A DNA stretch of 64,000 nt, taken from the IMG/VR virus record IMGVR_UViG_3300038466_000014; one strand, written 5' to 3'. Origin of the DNA: a virus. The first letter of the stretch is position 1. Every line of letters starts with the position of its first letter. The notes beneath the pieces are model-generated. The model had not been told where the DNA came from and did not search any database. It saw nothing but the letters and a program-made list of their open reading frames with translations. Shown piece after piece: positions 1,739-19,511 of this stretch. The translations under genes and the position numbers were made by a program.

Positions 1739-4315
1739 CTATTCATTTTCTACATTTTCATCCAATGTTAAATCAATTCCTTTATCGATCAGCCAGTCTC
1801 CCATCTGAATGAATATAGAATCGGTATCTGTATACAAAAGATACTTTATTAATTTCTCTTTATACCCTTCGGCAAATTCAGGATCAAAGTTTATCTCATT
1901 TGTCTTCATATACTCAGAAACATGATATCCGAGAAACTTAATTACTTCCTGTCCGGTAAGAGTAATAGACATTGCCAAATCATAGTTAAAGAATCTGAAT
2001 CCGGAATTTGCCAATACTCCATATAGGGCATTAGCCAAAATTTTATAAGCTGTTTGAATATTGTTATAATATTTCTCTTGTTCTTTCTCTTTACTTTTAA
2101 CATATACCTTCATCATATCTTTATATGTAGTACGCGAATCCATCAGATATTTCAGAATACTGTAAAGAAATGATAGCTCCTCATCATGACCTTTATATAT
2201 ACATCCGTTTATGGTTATAATATAATTATTGTCTATAATCCATTTTTCAAATTCATTATATGTAAATTGTTTTTCAATCATATTGTATAAAGGATCTAAA
2301 TATACTATAAAGTTATCTTTGTATCTGGATTGAATTTTATGTATAAAGTAATATGCCACATCTGTATCTACTTTCGCTACAAATGTATTTGGGCCTATGT
2401 TACAGCTTCTGACAATAGACGGATATAGAGACGTAAAGTCAAAGTCTATAACCCATTTATGAATTCCTGGTATTGGTTTTCTCACCACTGCTCCAGGAAT
2501 CTTAAACTTTTCTCCGATCTTAGGTCTGTTTCTGCATACACAATTTGAATTTTTGGCGTAAGACAACACCAGAGGATCCAGCAATCCAGTAGTGGTTTCT
2601 GCGGATCCCCAAGATGACGCGCAAATACGAATCAATTCATATTGTAACGATATATGTCCAAGTTTCTTGTCCAGTTCGTATAGAAGATCTGTATCGGTCT
2701 GCGAGTATTCCACGAACTTATGTATATCCTGTTCATATACGTGATCCAAGGTTCCTTCATAGGCAACTTTATCTTTTGATATATTTACTTTGGCTATGTG
2801 GGATAATTTATATGTGGGTTCTTTTCCCTGAGCAAATTTCTTATATAAAAACATCATATCCGGTATAGCTATTCCCGCTATATATGCCTTTTTAATATTG
2901 TTTATATCAAAACTCGCTCTTCCGACAGGAGAAATCTCGTTGAATGATATATGATTCTTTCGCATCCGCATAAACAAGGTTGGTATATCGAATGTAGATG
3001 TATTCCATCCTGTCAATATATCGGGCAATTCCGATTTCAATACTTTTATAAAATATAATATTAATTCTTTTTCAGTATCGAAAATTTTAACATCTTTATT
3101 ATCTAAAGATACCCCTGAATTTTTTATAACCCCTATGTCGTATATCAGCACCTGTGTAGGAGTATCTCCCATTTTATAAGATATGGCGTTTATCGGCGCA
3201 AGAGCGGTTTCCGGTCTGGGAAATGATTTTTTATGATCGTTCCACACCTCCATATCCCAATACATAGTCTTAAGATTGTAATTCTTTTCTGATAAATTTC
3301 TGAGAGTTTTCTGATAAAAATAGTCTATGGAATGTCTAAGATTTTTTTGCACATCGAATTCATATACTCCTACCTCATCACTTGGTTTTGTATCGAACCG
3401 GACAACGGCGTTTTCAACTTTTTCGACAATATCTGAAAAATCGAATGGTTTCTTTCCCTCGTAAAAATATCCATGATCACTCGATAATAAGTAAAACTTT
3501 TTTTCTTTTGTTTTAGCATTAACAAATGTGAAACAAATCTCTCTGGTCGCCTTTAAATTTTGACAGTCAATATATATCATATCGGGATCAAACATCCATT
3601 CCGGATAATTGAAATAAGTTATTGAATTATTTACTATAGAGTCCGGGGATTTATATTGCATTATATATTTAACGGCACTCTTAAAATCATTTAGAAATGA
3701 TTGATAGTCCTTTGTAAGTTTGCCATCAGTAGTTCTTATACCGCCATTTCGTTTCACGTAGGATGGGTGTGTCGTAATCATCACATCTCTTCCTTCAAAC
3801 TTATGGATCGTCCCCCCTTCCTGTGTTATCTTTTTAACGGATATACCAAGGGCTTTTGCTGAAGAATTACCCATGGCTAAAATCAATTTAGGATTGGTTA
3901 TTTTTATAATCTCAAGAAGATTGTTTCTGCAAAATGTATACGCCTCCTCTGGAGGATTTGCAGTGATCCATTTTTTTCCTTTTTTAGATAAGTTCGAACA
4001 TAAACATACATTGGATATGAATAGATTCAATTTACTCATTCCTGATTCAGTTTCCGCCGATCTGTATATGCTTCCGGCTCCTCCGATCAAAGGTCTTCCG
4101 GATTGCACTTCCTCATAGGCTGGAGCTTCTCCAAGGACCAGAATGTCTATATCTCTAATATACTCTCTATTACATTCTCCAGGAACTATCGGTTGTTTAT
4201 ATAAAGGACAATCGAAACAATTGGTAAATGGGGACTTCGGATTACTAATATTTCCCTCCTTTATAAAACAATTAAAATTTGAAAATCCTGTCAGATCTTG
4301 GCACCAGTCCAACAT
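1739..4315 (-). CDS. polB: Family B DNA polymerase, N-terminal subunit, fused to family-4 uracil-DNA glycosylase (UDG-exo-palm/fingers)
   Basis: UDG motifs CFDC, GEAP, SNVCLC, HPS. Exo motifs WDMEV, GWN..FD, YSQTD. Pol motifs DFTSLYPS, KILANALYG, YTDTDS. Stops about 25 aa after motif C. Confidence 0.92.
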   Translation of the reverse strand: MLDWCQDLTGFSNFNCFIKEGNISNPKSPFTNCFDCPLYKQPIVPGECNREYIRDIDILVLGEAPAYEEVQSGRPLIGGAGSIYRSAETESGMSKLNLFISNVCLCSNLSKKGKKWITANPPEEAYTFCRNNLLEIIKITNPKLILAMGNSSAKALGISVKKITQEGGTIHKFEGRDVMITTHPSYVKRNGGIRTTDGKLTKDYQSFLNDFKSAVKYIMQYKSPDSIVNNSITYFNYPEWMFDPDMIYIDCQNLKATREICFTFVNAKTKEKKFYLLSSDHGYFYEGKKPFDFSDIVEKVENAVVRFDTKPSDEVGVYEFDVQKNLRHSIDYFYQKTLRNLSEKNYNLKTMYWDMEVWNDHKKSFPRPETALAPINAISYKMGDTPTQVLIYDIGVIKNSGVSLDNKDVKIFDTEKELILYFIKVLKSELPDILTGWNTSTFDIPTLFMRMRKNHISFNEISPVGRASFDINNIKKAYIAGIAIPDMMFLYKKFAQGKEPTYKLSHIAKVNISKDKVAYEGTLDHVYEQDIHKFVEYSQTDTDLLYELDKKLGHISLQYELIRICASSWGSAETTTGLLDPLVLSYAKNSNCVCRNRPKIGEKFKIPGAVVRKPIPGIHKWVIDFDFTSLYPSIVRSCNIGPNTFVAKVDTDVAYYFIHKIQSRYKDNFIVYLDPLYNMIEKQFTYNEFEKWIIDNNYIITINGCIYKGHDEELSFLYSILKYLMDSRTTYKDMMKVYVKSKEKEQEKYYNNIQTAYKILANALYGVLANSGFRFFNYDLAMSITLTGQEVIKFLGYHVSEYMKTNEINFDPEFAEGYKEKLIKYLLYTDTDSIFIQMGDWLIDKGIDLTLDENVENE

Positions 4316-5060
4316 CCTCAGACAGCGGTTTTAAGAAATTGGATATACGTATATCCCAGGAAAATTCAATCATCTTATCAATATCTATTATGTAATAACT
4401 CGGAAGAAATTCCTCTTCGTATGGCATAGCAATAGCATTTCCAATTTTAATTCCTTCATCTATTAATTTCTTAATCCTGTCAGGAGATTTCATATAGTTA
4501 ATACCCTCAATATTAAACATATATCCTTTAGTACCTTGTTCGAAATATGGATATTCCAGTTTATTCCATAATTTCATACTTCTAATATGCATCGTCTGTG
4601 TTTTGTACTCATCATCATTTTTATTAAAATGGACAGGACGGGCAGCCTTCTTACTTCCTTCCAAAATACCAGTGATAAGTATTTCACGAGAGTCTGTTAT
4701 GAATTTAGCAATCTTTTTAAAATCTATATAGTATTCTCTAACAAGCATATCGAGTAACATAGACAATCTTTCTTTAGTAAATTCGGGATAATCCGATCTC
4801 CTAACCTCAATACCTTTATTCTCCATTTTATCCACAGGATCTTTTTCTTTATTTATGATGTGCAACGAATATTTCTTTCCCACTCCTGGGAAATATCCGG
4901 TATCTGCGACTAATTCCTGTTTGGCGTCAAAAAGATTGAACTTATCTTTGATATTATGTTTTCTGCCAAACTCCAGCGCTATAGGTACAATCGCGTTGGC
5001 TTTTATATTTTCAGCCTCTTTTAAAATAAGCGCAACGAGGTCTTCTTTTTTGATGCTCAT
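4272..5060 (-). CDS. polB: Family B DNA polymerase, C-terminal subunit (palm end and thumb)
   Basis: KQELVAD..GKKYS and KGIEVRRSDYPEFTK are the PolB motifs that follow motif C and are missing from 1739-4315. Confidence 0.85.
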   Translation of the reverse strand: MSIKKEDLVALILKEAENIKANAIVPIALEFGRKHNIKDKFNLFDAKQELVADTGYFPGVGKKYSLHIINKEKDPVDKMENKGIEVRRSDYPEFTKERLSMLLDMLVREYYIDFKKIAKFITDSREILITGILEGSKKAARPVHFNKNDDEYKTQTMHIRSMKLWNKLEYPYFEQGTKGYMFNIEGINYMKSPDRIKKLIDEGIKIGNAIAMPYEEEFLPSYYIIDIDKMIEFSWDIRISNFLKPLSEDVGLVPRSDRIFKF

Positions 5061-5200
5061 CGGGCACCGCCCGATGATTCCAGTTGAACCGCCTTTTCGG
5101 AACTCTGGTTTGGCGGACCACCAATAGACCGCACGGCTGAAACACTGTGTCCAACCGTTTGCTCATAGAGAAACCACCCATTGGCAGAAACATTAAAGGC
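5050..5200 (-). ncRNA. Predicted TnpB omegaRNA (right-end RNA); 5' limit approximate
   Basis: Inferred from established IS605 biology: the scaffold overlaps the tnpB 3' end and right end. The guide would be the flank AAAAGAAGACCTCGTTGCG. Confidence 0.5.
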
Positions 5201-6049
5201 CGCGTTTGAGTCTCTATGGTCAAAGTGAGAACATGAACATTTGTAGTTCTTTCCGTTTGGTTTGTTGATACTTCCGCACCTTGAGCAAACCTGACTTGTA
5301 TAAGCAGGATTTACGAAGAAGATTGGTATGCCAAGCAAAGATGCTTTGTATTTGATAAAGGTTTCCAAAGCAAAACGATGTGATTTGGCATAGTCAACAA
5401 CGGAACGACTCACTTTATGATTGATATCTTTAACTCTGTTTGACTGTTTACTTCTGATTTTCTTTAAAGCATCTTTAGCACCTTTCTTTTGTAAGTTCTT
5501 TCTTCTATTGCGGAAACTTTTAGTTATTCCAGACACATCTGGACCTAACTTCCTAACCTTTCCAGACATAACATCCGCACAAACCACAACATTCTCCACA
5601 CTGTTTCTATCAACTCCAAGAAATCCTTGAATTTTCTGTTCTTGTAAAACAGGAGTGTTGTAAGAGTAGGATATAAACCATTGCCCATTTCTTTTGAAAA
5701 ACTCTGCCTGTCTAATAAAACCAGAAATGGTTTTAGGAAATACAACAGGCAAAATAGATTTTTTGAAGAAGGCTGGGATTCGAATACCACCATCTACAAT
5801 CTTTACTTGTTTTCCTTTATCACCGCAAACAGGTAAAACAAGATTTTTGACCTGCTTGATCTTTTTGTTTCTCTGATATTTAGAAATAAGACTTTTAGCA
5901 AGAACACAAGGTATCTCTTTGTAATATTTAGAAGAAGATTTAGTTCTGTCTTCTATCATTCTGTTTACACAAACAGAAGCTTTTTGGTATAACTCGTCCA
6001 AAATAGGAGTAAGATTGTGAGGTATAACGACCTTAAAAGTAAGACACAT
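5057..6049 (-). CDS. tnpB: TnpB RNA-guided nuclease homologue, probably inactive
   Basis: RuvC-I GVDRN, Zn finger TSQVCSRCG..CSC and RuvC-III HRDSNAAFN present. The RuvC-II (IVLEDL-type) segment is not seen between AKSHR and LETFIKYKA. Likely start ATG 6049; frame is open to 6127. Confidence 0.88.
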   Translation of the reverse strand: MCLTFKVVIPHNLTPILDELYQKASVCVNRMIEDRTKSSSKYYKEIPCVLAKSLISKYQRNKKIKQVKNLVLPVCGDKGKQVKIVDGGIRIPAFFKKSILPVVFPKTISGFIRQAEFFKRNGQWFISYSYNTPVLQEQKIQGFLGVDRNSVENVVVCADVMSGKVRKLGPDVSGITKSFRNRRKNLQKKGAKDALKKIRSKQSNRVKDINHKVSRSVVDYAKSHRFALETFIKYKASLLGIPIFFVNPAYTSQVCSRCGSINKPNGKNYKCSCSHFDHRDSNAAFNVSANGWFLYEQTVGHSVSAVRSIGGPPNQSSEKAVQLESSGGAR

Positions 6050-6415
6050 TGTAAGTTCTTTCTCGTATACCATGTTGTGTTTGTAACCAAGTTTCGCTAT
6101 AAAATTTTCCATCAACACATTCTCCAAGATTTGATTTTAACTCTTCCAGAAATGGCTAAACAAATGTCTGTAAATATTTCTGAAATAAACGGTGAAGAAG
6201 ACCACATACATTTTCTTTTGGAAACAACACCACAAGACAATCTTGGTGGTGTTATAGGGGCACTAAAAGCACGGTCTTCTTCGTATCTACACGACAAATA
6301 TATCTTTCCATATTTGGGAAAACATTCCAGAACTCTTTGGTCTTCTGGGTATTTTATAGTATCCACTGGCGGTGCTCCTTTAGATGTTATTAAAAAGTAT
6401 ATCCAAAACCAATAA
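6017..6415 (+). CDS. tnpA: IS200/IS605 Y1 HUH transposase
   Basis: YHVVFVTKFR, HUH motif DHIHFL, LWSSGYF and catalytic YIQNQ. AGGAG SD before the GTG start. Confidence 0.93.
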   Translation: MRYNDLKSKTHCKFFLVYHVVFVTKFRYKIFHQHILQDLILTLPEMAKQMSVNISEINGEEDHIHFLLETTPQDNLGGVIGALKARSSSYLHDKYIFPYLGKHSRTLWSSGYFIVSTGGAPLDVIKKYIQNQ

Positions 6416-6488
6416 TAAGTATTAAATCCTACTTGTCAAGAGCCTAACCCCGAACACCGTTCGGGGATTGCGGCTCTAATACTGTTGA

Positions 6489-7154
6489 TTACACCTCCGT
6501 ACCAACCAATAGCTCCAGGTCTATATCACTATGATCCGAAAAAAATCTATCATTATCAACTTTTATATTTTTATTAAATAATTTCAAATAGTTTAACATT
6601 GACATAAGATCATCTTTATTATCTTCTTTCTCTATAATATCATTCACCGCCTCTAAAGCCAAATATTCTTTCCCGGATAATTTTTGTAGTTCGGATAGTT
6701 CCTTCTTAGAAATCTTTTTCTTTTTGTACTCGTTTAACTCCAAGTATTCCATCACCCCTGAATCGTTTTCTTCTTCTATTTTTTTAATCAATAGCTGTAA
6801 TTCGTATTTTTTTAGTAGTGGAAACTTCTGATGTAGATGTTGGATTTTCTCATCCACAGACGTAAATTTGAAAAACGATAAATCTTCTTTCTTTATATTA
6901 TAATACCGAATAAATTTCTTAAAGTATAAGAAAAATTCTGTATCATCTAATTTAAAAATATTATAATCGTTAAAATAATCATTTATAAAATCTGTTATAT
7001 TATCCATATAACCAAACATTGCTATAACAGATCTTTTTGATATTTGTTTTTGGATAACTGGATCGAGTGGAACATTTATAGGCTGATATAATAACCAATA
7101 TTTGAATTTAGCATATGGAGAATACTGTTTACCGCGTTCTTCTCCACCACTCAT
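6489..7154 (-). CDS. Hypothetical protein
   Basis: 221-aa ORF in the operon upstream of the polymerase genes. Confidence 0.7.
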   Translation of the reverse strand: MSGGEERGKQYSPYAKFKYWLLYQPINVPLDPVIQKQISKRSVIAMFGYMDNITDFINDYFNDYNIFKLDDTEFFLYFKKFIRYYNIKKEDLSFFKFTSVDEKIQHLHQKFPLLKKYELQLLIKKIEEENDSGVMEYLELNEYKKKKISKKELSELQKLSGKEYLALEAVNDIIEKEDNKDDLMSMLNYLKLFNKNIKVDNDRFFSDHSDIDLELLVGTEV

Positions 7155-7155
7155 G

Positions 7156-7446
7156 CTATTCTATGTTTTCTATTTTTTTCTTCGCGTTTTTATAAATCGC
7201 ACAAATCTTTTTATCGTTGTTAATAGATATCTTTCTAAAATCTCTCATCATTGTAGCTATAAGCATGGATGCTCTCCGGCTCCTTCTCGCTGTAGATCTG
7301 ACGGTTTTTCCAACCTCAGCAAGCCGTATAAAATCATTGAATGTTTTCTTTATAGATTCGAGATATTCCGAATATGACTCTGTGGAATTTATTAACTCAT
7401 CACAATCGTCCTGATGTAAAACATAATTCTCTTCATTGATGCTCAT
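7156..7446 (-). CDS. Histone H1-like (Hc1-type) DNA-binding protein
   Basis: AEVGKTVRSTARRSRRASMLIATMMRDFRKISI resembles the basic Hc1-family helix. Confidence 0.5.
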   Translation of the reverse strand: MSINEENYVLHQDDCDELINSTESYSEYLESIKKTFNDFIRLAEVGKTVRSTARRSRRASMLIATMMRDFRKISINNDKKICAIYKNAKKKIENIE

Positions 7447-7449
7447 GTC

Positions 7450-8709
7450 TTATTTCTCTCCTGCCATTAATGTTTTGAATTTTTTTACAACTTCATCGGT
7501 ATTTATCGAGTTCATACAATTAGGAGTATTATCCAAAGCCCTGACCATTTTACACTGTGTAATTCGATCGTCGTGTAGGAAACAAGGATACTTGTCGCAT
7601 TTTAGAATGTTTTTATCGGGTTGTACCCATTCGGAATTTTTGTAATATTTTACCCGCGTATCTCCAGTAAAGGGTCCATATAATGTAAGTGTGGGTTTCC
7701 CAAACGCCGCTCCAATATGACTGAAAGACGAATCGAGTCCTACCACCCCATGACATTTGGAAAGAACATAACATGCGTGCGCTATCGTTTCCGAACTCGA
7801 AGACGCATTGGTTATTCTTCCAGGAGAGTCCTTAAAATACGCAGCTATAAATTTATCATAATATGTACTTCTTTCCGGTCTATCCAATATAACAAAATTA
7901 AAATCGGTTTCTTTAATAAGCTGTTCTATAAGCAATCTCCAAAATTCCATAGACGCCGTTCTCAACATAGAAGATGTTGACATCTGCAATATAATAGTGT
8001 TTTCCGGAAGACGTACAAAATATTTTTGTTCAAATCCTTTAACGAACGATGTATTTGTCGTAAGCTCAGGACACCACATCTGTTTGGTCATGTCTATATT
8101 TAATCCGGCGGTCTTGTTCATCAGATCATAAGCATTTACACGTTCAGCTTCTTTACACGACTCTATAACCCCATCGAACATCAGATGATAATTAGCCATA
8201 AACATGGCTTTTTGGTCGAATGGGATAGGAATAACTCTGTCGATCAACCCCTCTGGATAGAAATAAAACAAATCCATGTTTTTTGGAGCAGTAGCAAACA
8301 AAATTTTACAGGTCGGATATTTTGCCTTTAAGTATTTAATCATAGGTTGTATGAAAATAAGATCTCCAATACCACCCGTTCGTGAAATGAGCAGTGTTTT
8401 GTTATTTAGATCTTGTCCATAGTATCTTCTGAACTGGGATTTAAAAGTTGTTTTGTGCGGTTTAAGTATTACCCTTCTGGTAGTCTTTGCCCGTTCCGCA
8501 TCGGCAAACATATATATCGGCATGGTAATAATCTGGTCTCTGGTTATTTTGAATTTTTGACCGCCCACATCCATTACCGCATTCTCAAGGACTTTCGCGT
8601 TGATGTACTTTGGTGTTTCCTTAATTATATCATCTACGGTCTCATAAATATCTTTTCGATTTATAAGTTCACCTACCCCAAGCTTTCTAAGTTTTGTTTT
8701 GGACTGCAT
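7450..8709 (-). CDS. Glycosyltransferase family 9 (heptosyltransferase-like, GT-B)
   Basis: RTGGIGDL and GLDSSFSHIGAAFGKPTLTLYGP signatures. Confidence 0.85.
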   Translation of the reverse strand: MQSKTKLRKLGVGELINRKDIYETVDDIIKETPKYINAKVLENAVMDVGGQKFKITRDQIITMPIYMFADAERAKTTRRVILKPHKTTFKSQFRRYYGQDLNNKTLLISRTGGIGDLIFIQPMIKYLKAKYPTCKILFATAPKNMDLFYFYPEGLIDRVIPIPFDQKAMFMANYHLMFDGVIESCKEAERVNAYDLMNKTAGLNIDMTKQMWCPELTTNTSFVKGFEQKYFVRLPENTIILQMSTSSMLRTASMEFWRLLIEQLIKETDFNFVILDRPERSTYYDKFIAAYFKDSPGRITNASSSSETIAHACYVLSKCHGVVGLDSSFSHIGAAFGKPTLTLYGPFTGDTRVKYYKNSEWVQPDKNILKCDKYPCFLHDDRITQCKMVRALDNTPNCMNSINTDEVVKKFKTLMAGEK

Positions 8710-18745: not shown

Positions 18746-19375
18746 TTAATATACTACCTTATTATCTTCTATTATCTTAATAATAGAATTAATCATCTCA
18801 TCGGTTATAGTATTACTAATATTTGTAAGATAATTTGACAGTTCCGTTATATAAGCAGGTCTATTTCCTCTATCCATAGACTCAATCCTATCTTTTTCTA
18901 GAGGATCACATGCACCAATATGTAATAGCAACATCTTATTAATATACTTATATGTATAAAAATAAATTGCCACAAGTAATTTTAATAAATCCTTATGTGA
19001 CCATTGTTCTATATGAGGAATCATACTAATATTATCAGCATCAAAACTTATACTATAATGTAATAACCACTCATTAGAAATACCACCAACCTTCTGCATA
19101 TTACGTATGTCTAAAATAATACCTACCAACATTCTTAATTTGTTCTGCATAGATGTATCTTTAGGTAGTGGTATTATACAACGATTAATAGTAGAGCCTA
19201 AACACGTTTCAAATTTGCATAACTTTGGTATATAAAAATCATCTATCTTACAAGTACTAATTGTTTTAAAAATAAGACTATTATCATCTATAAGTTTCTT
19301 TACTACTTTGAGTATTATATCAGAGTTATAATGGTATGTATCCAAGTCAATGGGTGTCATATATTTGATGTTCAT
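18746..19375 (-). CDS. Hypothetical protein; start codon lies in the mini-IS right end
   Basis: 209 aa. ATGAACATCAA is the right end of the 147-bp element. Confidence 0.65.
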   Translation of the reverse strand: MNIKYMTPIDLDTYHYNSDIILKVVKKLIDDNSLIFKTISTCKIDDFYIPKLCKFETCLGSTINRCIIPLPKDTSMQNKLRMLVGIILDIRNMQKVGGISNEWLLHYSISFDADNISMIPHIEQWSHKDLLKLLVAIYFYTYKYINKMLLLHIGACDPLEKDRIESMDRGNRPAYITELSNYLTNISNTITDEMINSIIKIIEDNKVVY

Positions 19376-19511
19376 TGAATACCTCCCGATGATTCCGGTC
19401 TGGAGATCTCCGGCCTTTCGGCGTGAGTTCCAGCGTTAATGATCAATTTAATCCTCCTTGTTTACAGAGCCTAACCCCGAACACCGTTCGGGGATTGCGG
19501 CTCTAATACTG
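19365..19511 (-). mobile_element. 147-bp non-autonomous derivative of the IS605 element
   Basis: First 46 nt are identical to the IS left end. Ends GGAATCATCGGGAGGTATTCAATGAACATCAA versus IS GGAATCATCGGGCGGTGCCCGATGAGCATCAA. Confidence 0.88.
19372..19446 (-). CDS. 24-aa mini-ORF inside the mini-IS (TnpB C-terminus-like end)
   Basis: AAGGAGG SD, TTG start, MIINAGTHAERPEISRPESSGGIQ (TnpB ends ESSGGAR). Its TGA overlaps the downstream ATG. Confidence 0.55.
   Translation of the reverse strand: MIINAGTHAERPEISRPESSGGIQ

Follow-up and report, generated by a model that had tools for sequence, protein, structure and literature searches.

A single flanking base may have locked an IS605-type element into a split DNA polymerase gene of a large phage

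The 64,000-nucleotide stretch of viral DNA analysed here (the window) is part of a 180 kb contig of a large uncultured phage with clamp-loader, helicase, primase and virion genes. It raises the question of how a mobile element of the IS200/IS605 family came to lie at the very start of a DNA polymerase subunit gene, beside a flank unlike that of its relatives, and whether the phage could still do without it. Along the minus strand a 221-aa gene (7154-6489) is followed by the element (6484-5050), the subunit gene (5060-4272) and the gene for the large polymerase piece (4315-1739). Read directly on this strand, the left junction of the full element is ...ACGGAGGTG TAA TCAA|CAGTATTAGAGCC, in which the first base of the element is 6484, the flanking TCAA occupies 6485-6488 and its C corresponds to G6487 of the plus strand. 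A mini-copy of the same element, 147 bp long (19365-19511, minus strand), has the left junction ...GATTATATGAA|CAGTATTAGAGCC, with the flank TGAA at 19515-19512. The repeat comparison within the window showed that the left ends of the two copies are identical over 47 nt, and in the 51-nt repeat of family D4 the flank base is the sole difference between them. The contrast between TCAA|CAG in the full copy and TGAA|CAG in the mini-copy, with C at 6487, had been drawn in a preliminary description of this DNA and proved exact on re-reading.

The limits of the full element (1435 bp, 5050-6484, minus strand) were obtained by alignment with the copies at loci L011, L015 and L016, which are 88-91% identical to it and have unrelated flanks, and its parts follow the IS605-type order of left end, leftward tnpA, rightward tnpB and right end. 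Hairpins are subterminal at both ends, the end sequences differ and there are no terminal inverted repeats. The left end contains the guide CAAT (6470-6467) followed by an 8-bp hairpin, CCCCGAAC-GGT-GTTCGGGG (together 6448-6470, minus strand), 18 nt from the cleavage site; the DNA fold of this hairpin gave -14.1 kcal/mol (z -4.5), and in L027 and L030 the left stem is preserved via a compensatory change. The right end (5050-5080, minus strand), recognised by its fold and by the terminus shared with other copies, comprises the guide GAAT (5080-5077), the hairpin CATCGGGC-GGT-GCCCGATG (-10.2 kcal/mol, z -4.2) and then AGCATCAA. An ATG at 5060-5058 lies in the stem of this second hairpin and overlaps the tnpB stop as ATGA, and the last four bases of the element, at 5053-5050, are TCAA. 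The left end also includes a promoter-like TTGACA-16-TATTAT (6412-6439, minus strand), a sigma-70-like site by consensus match only (11 of 12 positions), which is directed to tnpB and the polymerase subunit gene and is conserved in other copies.

Further copies were sought with a pattern made of the left guide and hairpin and with a right-end pattern, and matches were found in 20 IMG/VR loci, from which ten independent insertions were counted (L011/12, L013, L014, L015, L016, L022/26, L025, L027 and L030). At all ten other left ends that could be placed in IMG/VR phage contigs the flank TGAA accompanies the guide CAAT, TCAA being found only at the full copy of the window; seven of these flanks read ATGAA and three TTGAA. 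The right ends all terminate in ...GATGAGCATCAA and pass into unrelated DNA, the terminus being identical in 16 loci with unrelated right flanks. Insertion thus takes place 3' of a fixed tetranucleotide, TGAA, without target duplication. The search of genome contigs with the left-end pattern returned only three unrelated hairpins and no clue to a host.

In IS608 the cleavage tetranucleotide is recognised by base pairs with a guide, the four bases that stand 5' of the hairpin, and excision requires this tetranucleotide on the left side (PMC3201880; PMC5934647); guide base 1 is the partner of C at position -3 of the cleavage site, and guide base 2 that of T at position -4 (PMC3201880). When this rule is applied to the present element, GAAT leads to TCAA, which is the observed right terminus, and CAAT leads to TGAA, which is the observed flank. 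Complementarity at positions -3/g1, -4/g2 and -1/g4 was found at the right end and at all the other left ends, and it fails at the left end of the full copy, where at position -3 a C stands opposite a C. The C at 6487 is therefore a mismatch, because the IS608 rule predicts TGAA from CAAT. The target motif TGAA, predicted earlier and serving also as left cleavage site for the element, is hence supported by the ten other copies, by the mini-copy and by the guide itself. By analogy with IS608, the mismatch at -3 should weaken cleavage at the left end; a single mismatch may reduce cleavage by TnpA and not abolish it.

One account of TCAA would be that the element inserted there by relaxed target choice and that no mutation followed. 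Such a near-cognate site differs from TGAA at one position, and IS608 derivatives use their targets with differing efficiency (PMC3201880). However, none of the ten other copies lies at a non-TGAA site, and the subunit gene would before the insertion have had to begin at ATC behind a strong Shine-Dalgarno sequence, no other in-frame start being present. The ATC in question (6488-6486, minus strand, with 6487 as the changed base) is the presumed former ATG. It is preceded at a distance of 4 nt by the now orphaned Shine-Dalgarno sequence GGAGGTG (6492-6498, minus strand), a heptamer with only three occurrences in the 128 kb of both window strands, and it is overlapped, as TA-ATC, by the stop codon TAA (6491-6489) of the upstream gene. 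In the subunit frame a stop lies 12 codons before the ATC, and from there no ATG, GTG or TTG is met until codon 58. Since the gene needed a start before the insertion and this codon is the sole candidate, it is very probably, to judge from the sequence, the only plausible native start, ancestrally ATG, and the flank was hence TGAA. An ancestral ATG makes a near-cognate insertion at TCAA unlikely, and we attach a very low probability to it.

The position of the native start agrees with what is seen in other genomes. In nine stand-alone subunit homologues (263-270 aa) the N-terminus lies 2-4 residues ahead of the conserved block, and at L017 the subunit gene starts with ATGAAT. In L004, a distant IS-free contig of 245 kb, the gene directly before the subunit gene is homologous to the upstream gene of the window (34% identity, E 4e-18), and its TGA overlaps the ATGAAA of the subunit gene, so that an unoccupied ATGAA site is present at the corresponding place. 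In the comparison with IS-free relatives that the preliminary description had proposed, no close relative was found in the collections searched, the best homologue (P0002) having 50% protein identity. With 3500-8000 as the query, a blastn search in distant mode found nothing among 50,697 phage records, tblastn gave one weak match for the subunit and none for the upstream protein, viral contigs scanned with a single protein contained no relative, and a profile scan of metagenome contigs found one locus only, at 39% identity. The target motif, the Shine-Dalgarno sequence, the starts of the homologues and L004 all support the claim, made from the letters of the window, that one G-to-C change hit the target motif together with the native ATG. 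If 6487 changed after the insertion, the junction in an IS-free sister should be TAATGAAAAAAG, and TAATCAAAAAAG would contradict this order.

The upstream gene itself (221 aa, 6489-7154, minus strand, from the ORF list) belongs to an unnamed family; its product has 142 homologues, most of 150-210 aa, and no Pfam or PHROG match. Its 3' end bears on another origin of the flank, namely that the sequence left of the element is the worn right end of an earlier copy, TCAA being the terminus of that end and not a mutated TGAA. Such an arrangement could arise, for example, if recombination between an excised circle and a resident copy produced a tandem dimer and most of the left copy was then deleted. 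TCAA exactly matches the right-end terminus, and of the 30 nt to its left 14 agree with the right end, in the reading frame of the tnpB tail (empirical p about 0.006); background windows average 7.0 such agreements (sd 2.5), and the left flanks of other copies have 5-11. Moreover, the tail of about 12 residues of the upstream protein (the last ~34 nt, 6485-6524) is absent from the 142 homologues. A foreign origin of this tail was also sought in its GC-richness, which was set aside as a weak sign, 12% of the 34-mers of the window being equally GC-rich. On the other hand, a relic of this kind would make coincidences of the rare Shine-Dalgarno sequence that precedes an in-frame AT(C) by 4 nt and of the overlapping stop, and it would require both the formation of a dimer and an in-frame deletion. 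The putative relic has no hairpin, its likeness to the right end stops without extending further upstream, and 16 of 34 positions differ from the right end, although the element next to it shares 88-91% identity with other copies. This origin of the flank is considered improbable. Both alternatives that the preliminary description had mentioned, a right-end/left-end junction and a relaxed target, thus have something in their favour, in the first case the 14/30 likeness, and were judged weaker than a mutated TGAA in view of the coincidences that they impose on the Shine-Dalgarno sequence and the ATC.

A further explanation would be that 6487 is a sequencing or assembly error, or a minority variant, and that the true flank is TGAA. 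The sequence is a metagenome assembly, and the base adjoins the 47-nt repeat that is present twice in the genome. It lies outside this repeat, however, where the sequence is unique; errors of a single base in a consensus are rare, and the same copy shows other copy-specific decay in the form of the tnpB deletion and the GTG start of tnpA described below. An error is accordingly held to be highly improbable. If it is set aside, every reading considered here arrives at the same state, a left end that has no cognate site and a gene whose only start is inside the element.

The subunit whose start is concerned (262 aa, 4272-5060, minus strand) is the C-terminal subunit of a split family B DNA polymerase, as seen from a match to positions 281-350 of Pfam DNA_pol_B and from PHROG 262, DNA polymerase. 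Its first three and two-thirds codons (ATG AGC ATC AA) are element DNA, and the current protein begins with MSIKKEDL. The right end finishes with ATGAGCATCAA, so that 11 nt stand in place of the 5 nt of ATGAA; as this adds two codons, the right-end ATG is automatically in frame and M-K becomes M-S-I-K. Of the 16 distinct right flanks at the IMG/VR loci L011-L031, 8 continue the right-end ATG as an ORF of 80 aa or more, which suggests that the donation of a start codon by the right end is a general habit of the element family. Because this ATG overlaps the tnpB stop and sits in the stem of the right hairpin, it is probably reached mainly by ribosomes that finish tnpB and restart at ATGA. That such coupling is not general follows from the short elements at L021, L023 and L029, which keep the hairpin and are followed by in-frame ORFs; the notion that the hairpin must be lost whenever tnpB is absent was dropped on the same grounds.

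The consequence of removing the element was examined in silico. Precise excision gives GGAGGTGTA ATC AAA AAA GAA GAC, and the next ATG after this joint is codon 77, the Met79 of the present protein, just as the preliminary description had stated; before it, only a GTG at codon 58 and a TTG at codon 64 are in frame. Met79 lies beyond the residues L13, E15, K47, Q48, E49, F57 and K62, which are invariant among the homologues. From the sequence the phage therefore appears to need the ATG of the element to make the subunit. The tetranucleotide at the left flank would also be the motif that TnpB reads at the emptied site, and restorative homing at the site of the full copy would be lost too, if this equivalence of motifs holds here.

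Both genes of the full copy show changes when compared with those of other copies. The product of tnpA (132 aa, 6017-6415, plus strand) is a Y1 HUH transposase (Pfam Y1_Tnp, 1.6e-29), in which both the HUH motif (HIHFLL) and the catalytic tyrosine (SSGYF) are present; its start codon is GTG, as against ATG in the other copies. In tnpB (5057-6112, minus strand; Pfam Cas12f1-like_TNB, 2e-18; stop TGA at 5059-5057) an in-frame deletion of 84 bp, with the junction near 5368/5369 (5360-5377), was found by comparison with L011, L015 and L016. It takes out 28 residues, beginning with IVLEDL and including the RuvC-II glutamate, and the lost motif aligns to the I-x-M-E-D-L motif of the solved Cas12f/TnpB chains 9nzq and 8j12. 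The frame stays open beyond the deletion up to the TGA that overlaps the ATG of the subunit. The series of RuvC-I, -II and -III with zinc ribbon is thus incomplete, the RuvC-II segment being deleted here and intact in L011, L015 and L016; judged by these three copies, the loss is a defect of this copy and not of the family. The in-frame RuvC-II deletion and the GTG start are new to the present analysis. Window-specific changes in tnpA number 2 synonymous and 5 non-synonymous, compared with 11 to 2 in L016, and those in tnpB 34 synonymous and 11 non-synonymous. Since the changes in tnpB are mostly synonymous, the element would not seem to be old wreckage; the counts in both genes are small, and any signal of decay drawn from them is suggestive only. 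On opposite strands tnpA and tnpB share about 100 bp at their 5' ends (6017-6127), an overlap that is kept in all full copies.

Taken together, these data lead us to regard as probable a history in which the element was inserted on an ATGAA start and was later locked into the subunit gene by the change of G to C. An IS605-type element would have entered 3' of TGAA in ...GGAGGTG TA ATG AA|A AAA GAA..., the point of insertion being the start codon of the subunit gene where it overlaps the stop of the upstream gene. The subunit would still have been made, with MSIKKEDL... replacing MKKEDL..., and the orphaned native ATG could then have turned into ATC by G to C at 6487. This base is at the same time position -3 of the left site, and by the IS608 rule cleavage by TnpA depends on the pairing of this position with the initial guide base of CAAT. 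Excision would in this way be strongly impaired, a precise excision event would leave no start codon, and restorative homing would be gone. The element may since have decayed where the phage has no need of it, in the tnpB glutamate and in the weakened tnpA start, whereas the tnpB frame and the right-end ATG would have been retained.

It is tempting to go one step further and to see in the element a required expression module, in which the promoter-like site of the left end, translation of a nuclease-dead tnpB with its frame preserved and the restart at ATGA within the right-end hairpin would together serve the subunit gene, the G-to-C change and the RuvC deletion having been selected since they would disarm excision and the cutting of emptied phage genomes by TnpB. 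This extension is regarded as doubtful.

The mini-copy, a candidate PATE/MITE-like derivative, has both ends and no transposase genes. Its left end is intact, and the 3' arm of the right-end hairpin has changed to GGGAGGT-ATTCA-ATG, by which the hairpin is lost (fold z 0.2). With the hairpin destroyed, the mini-copy is probably no longer mobilisable. Its removal in silico joins the ORFs 19825-19448 and 19375-18746 in frame to an ORF of about 310 aa, a gene for which no homologues were found. As it stands, the left end adds a tail of 21 residues to the N-terminal part of the split ORF, and the C-terminal part restarts at the right-end ATG behind the newly formed GGGAGGT.

The large polymerase subunit (858 aa, 1739-4315, minus strand) carries the UDG, exonuclease and palm domains and ends 28 residues after DTDS. 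The split of the polymerase lies after motif C, and the gene for the small C-terminal piece stands upstream of that for the UDG-fused piece, an order shared with L001 and L004; in L006-L010 the polymerase is unsplit, and in L003 and L005 it is split elsewhere, in normal order. The existence of stand-alone subunit homologues implies that the split is older than the insertion. For the large piece, a strong AAGGAGG (4250-4260, minus strand) is found 5-6 nt before an in-frame ATT, and a start at the first ATG (4315) would lie 44 nt within the preceding gene. Two intergenic motifs, GGACAAATTTTAAA (945, 8785, 41370, 45166, 52817 and 57078) and TATTATTTAATATATATAATAA (1716, 18036, 28604, 31242 and 41287), recur on both strands of the window and look like phage regulatory signals.

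Members of the IS200/IS605 family are usually described as removable passengers, precise excision of which restores the site. At the full copy a single base appears to make insertion a one-way step, and the locus offers a testable example of a selfish element that would be indispensable without having acquired a new function. What is unusual about it is the start-donating right end and the fact that one base takes away both the native start and the left cleavage site; in the literature searched no account was found of a right end of the IS605 family supplying start codons, nor of such a lock. The base pairing at a cleavage site can thus double as a coding signal. For annotation it follows that, where phage genomes contain this element family, some genes have their first codons within the element.

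Several known systems can be compared with the locus. In T4-like Aeromonas phages the family B polymerase is made as two products, gp43A and gp43B, split after motif C (DTDS); the present polymerase differs from these in its reversed gene order and in the UDG domain fused to the large piece. IStrons, in which a group I intron is fused to an IS200/IS605 or IS607 element, resemble the case described here in being IS605-type elements that survive in genes through rescued expression, but here the rescue would be due to a new 5' start codon and not to RNA splicing. Identity with an IStron was considered and rejected, as an Rfam search of 4500-7000 at E up to 1 matched no family and revealed no group I intron ribozyme, and only about 70 nt separate the left end from the end of tnpA. 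TldR proteins are reportedly nuclease-dead, domesticated relatives of TnpB. The tnpB of the window is like them in that RuvC catalysis is lost and the ORF is kept; it differs in that a 28-residue deletion has occurred in an ordinary copy of an element, with no evidence of a regulatory role.

Its genes, the structure of its ends, the guide rule and its behaviour towards the target mark the element as an ordinary one of the IS200/IS605 family, closest to IS608/IS605 of Helicobacter pylori, with which it shares divergent tnpA and tnpB genes, subterminal hairpins and a 4-nt guide 5' of each hairpin. The right guide GAAT and the terminus TCAA are identical to those of IS608, AG stands directly 3' of the right hairpin, and, as in IS608, about 18-19 nt separate the left cleavage site from the hairpin and insertion occurs 3' of a fixed tetranucleotide without duplication. 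The two differ in the target, which is TGAA (guide CAAT) for the present element and TTAC for IS608, and in the right linker of 8 nt as opposed to 10. They differ further in that the present element resides in phage genomes, carries an outward-usable right-end ATG over the tnpB stop and has, in its full copy, a left site that is mismatched to its own guide.
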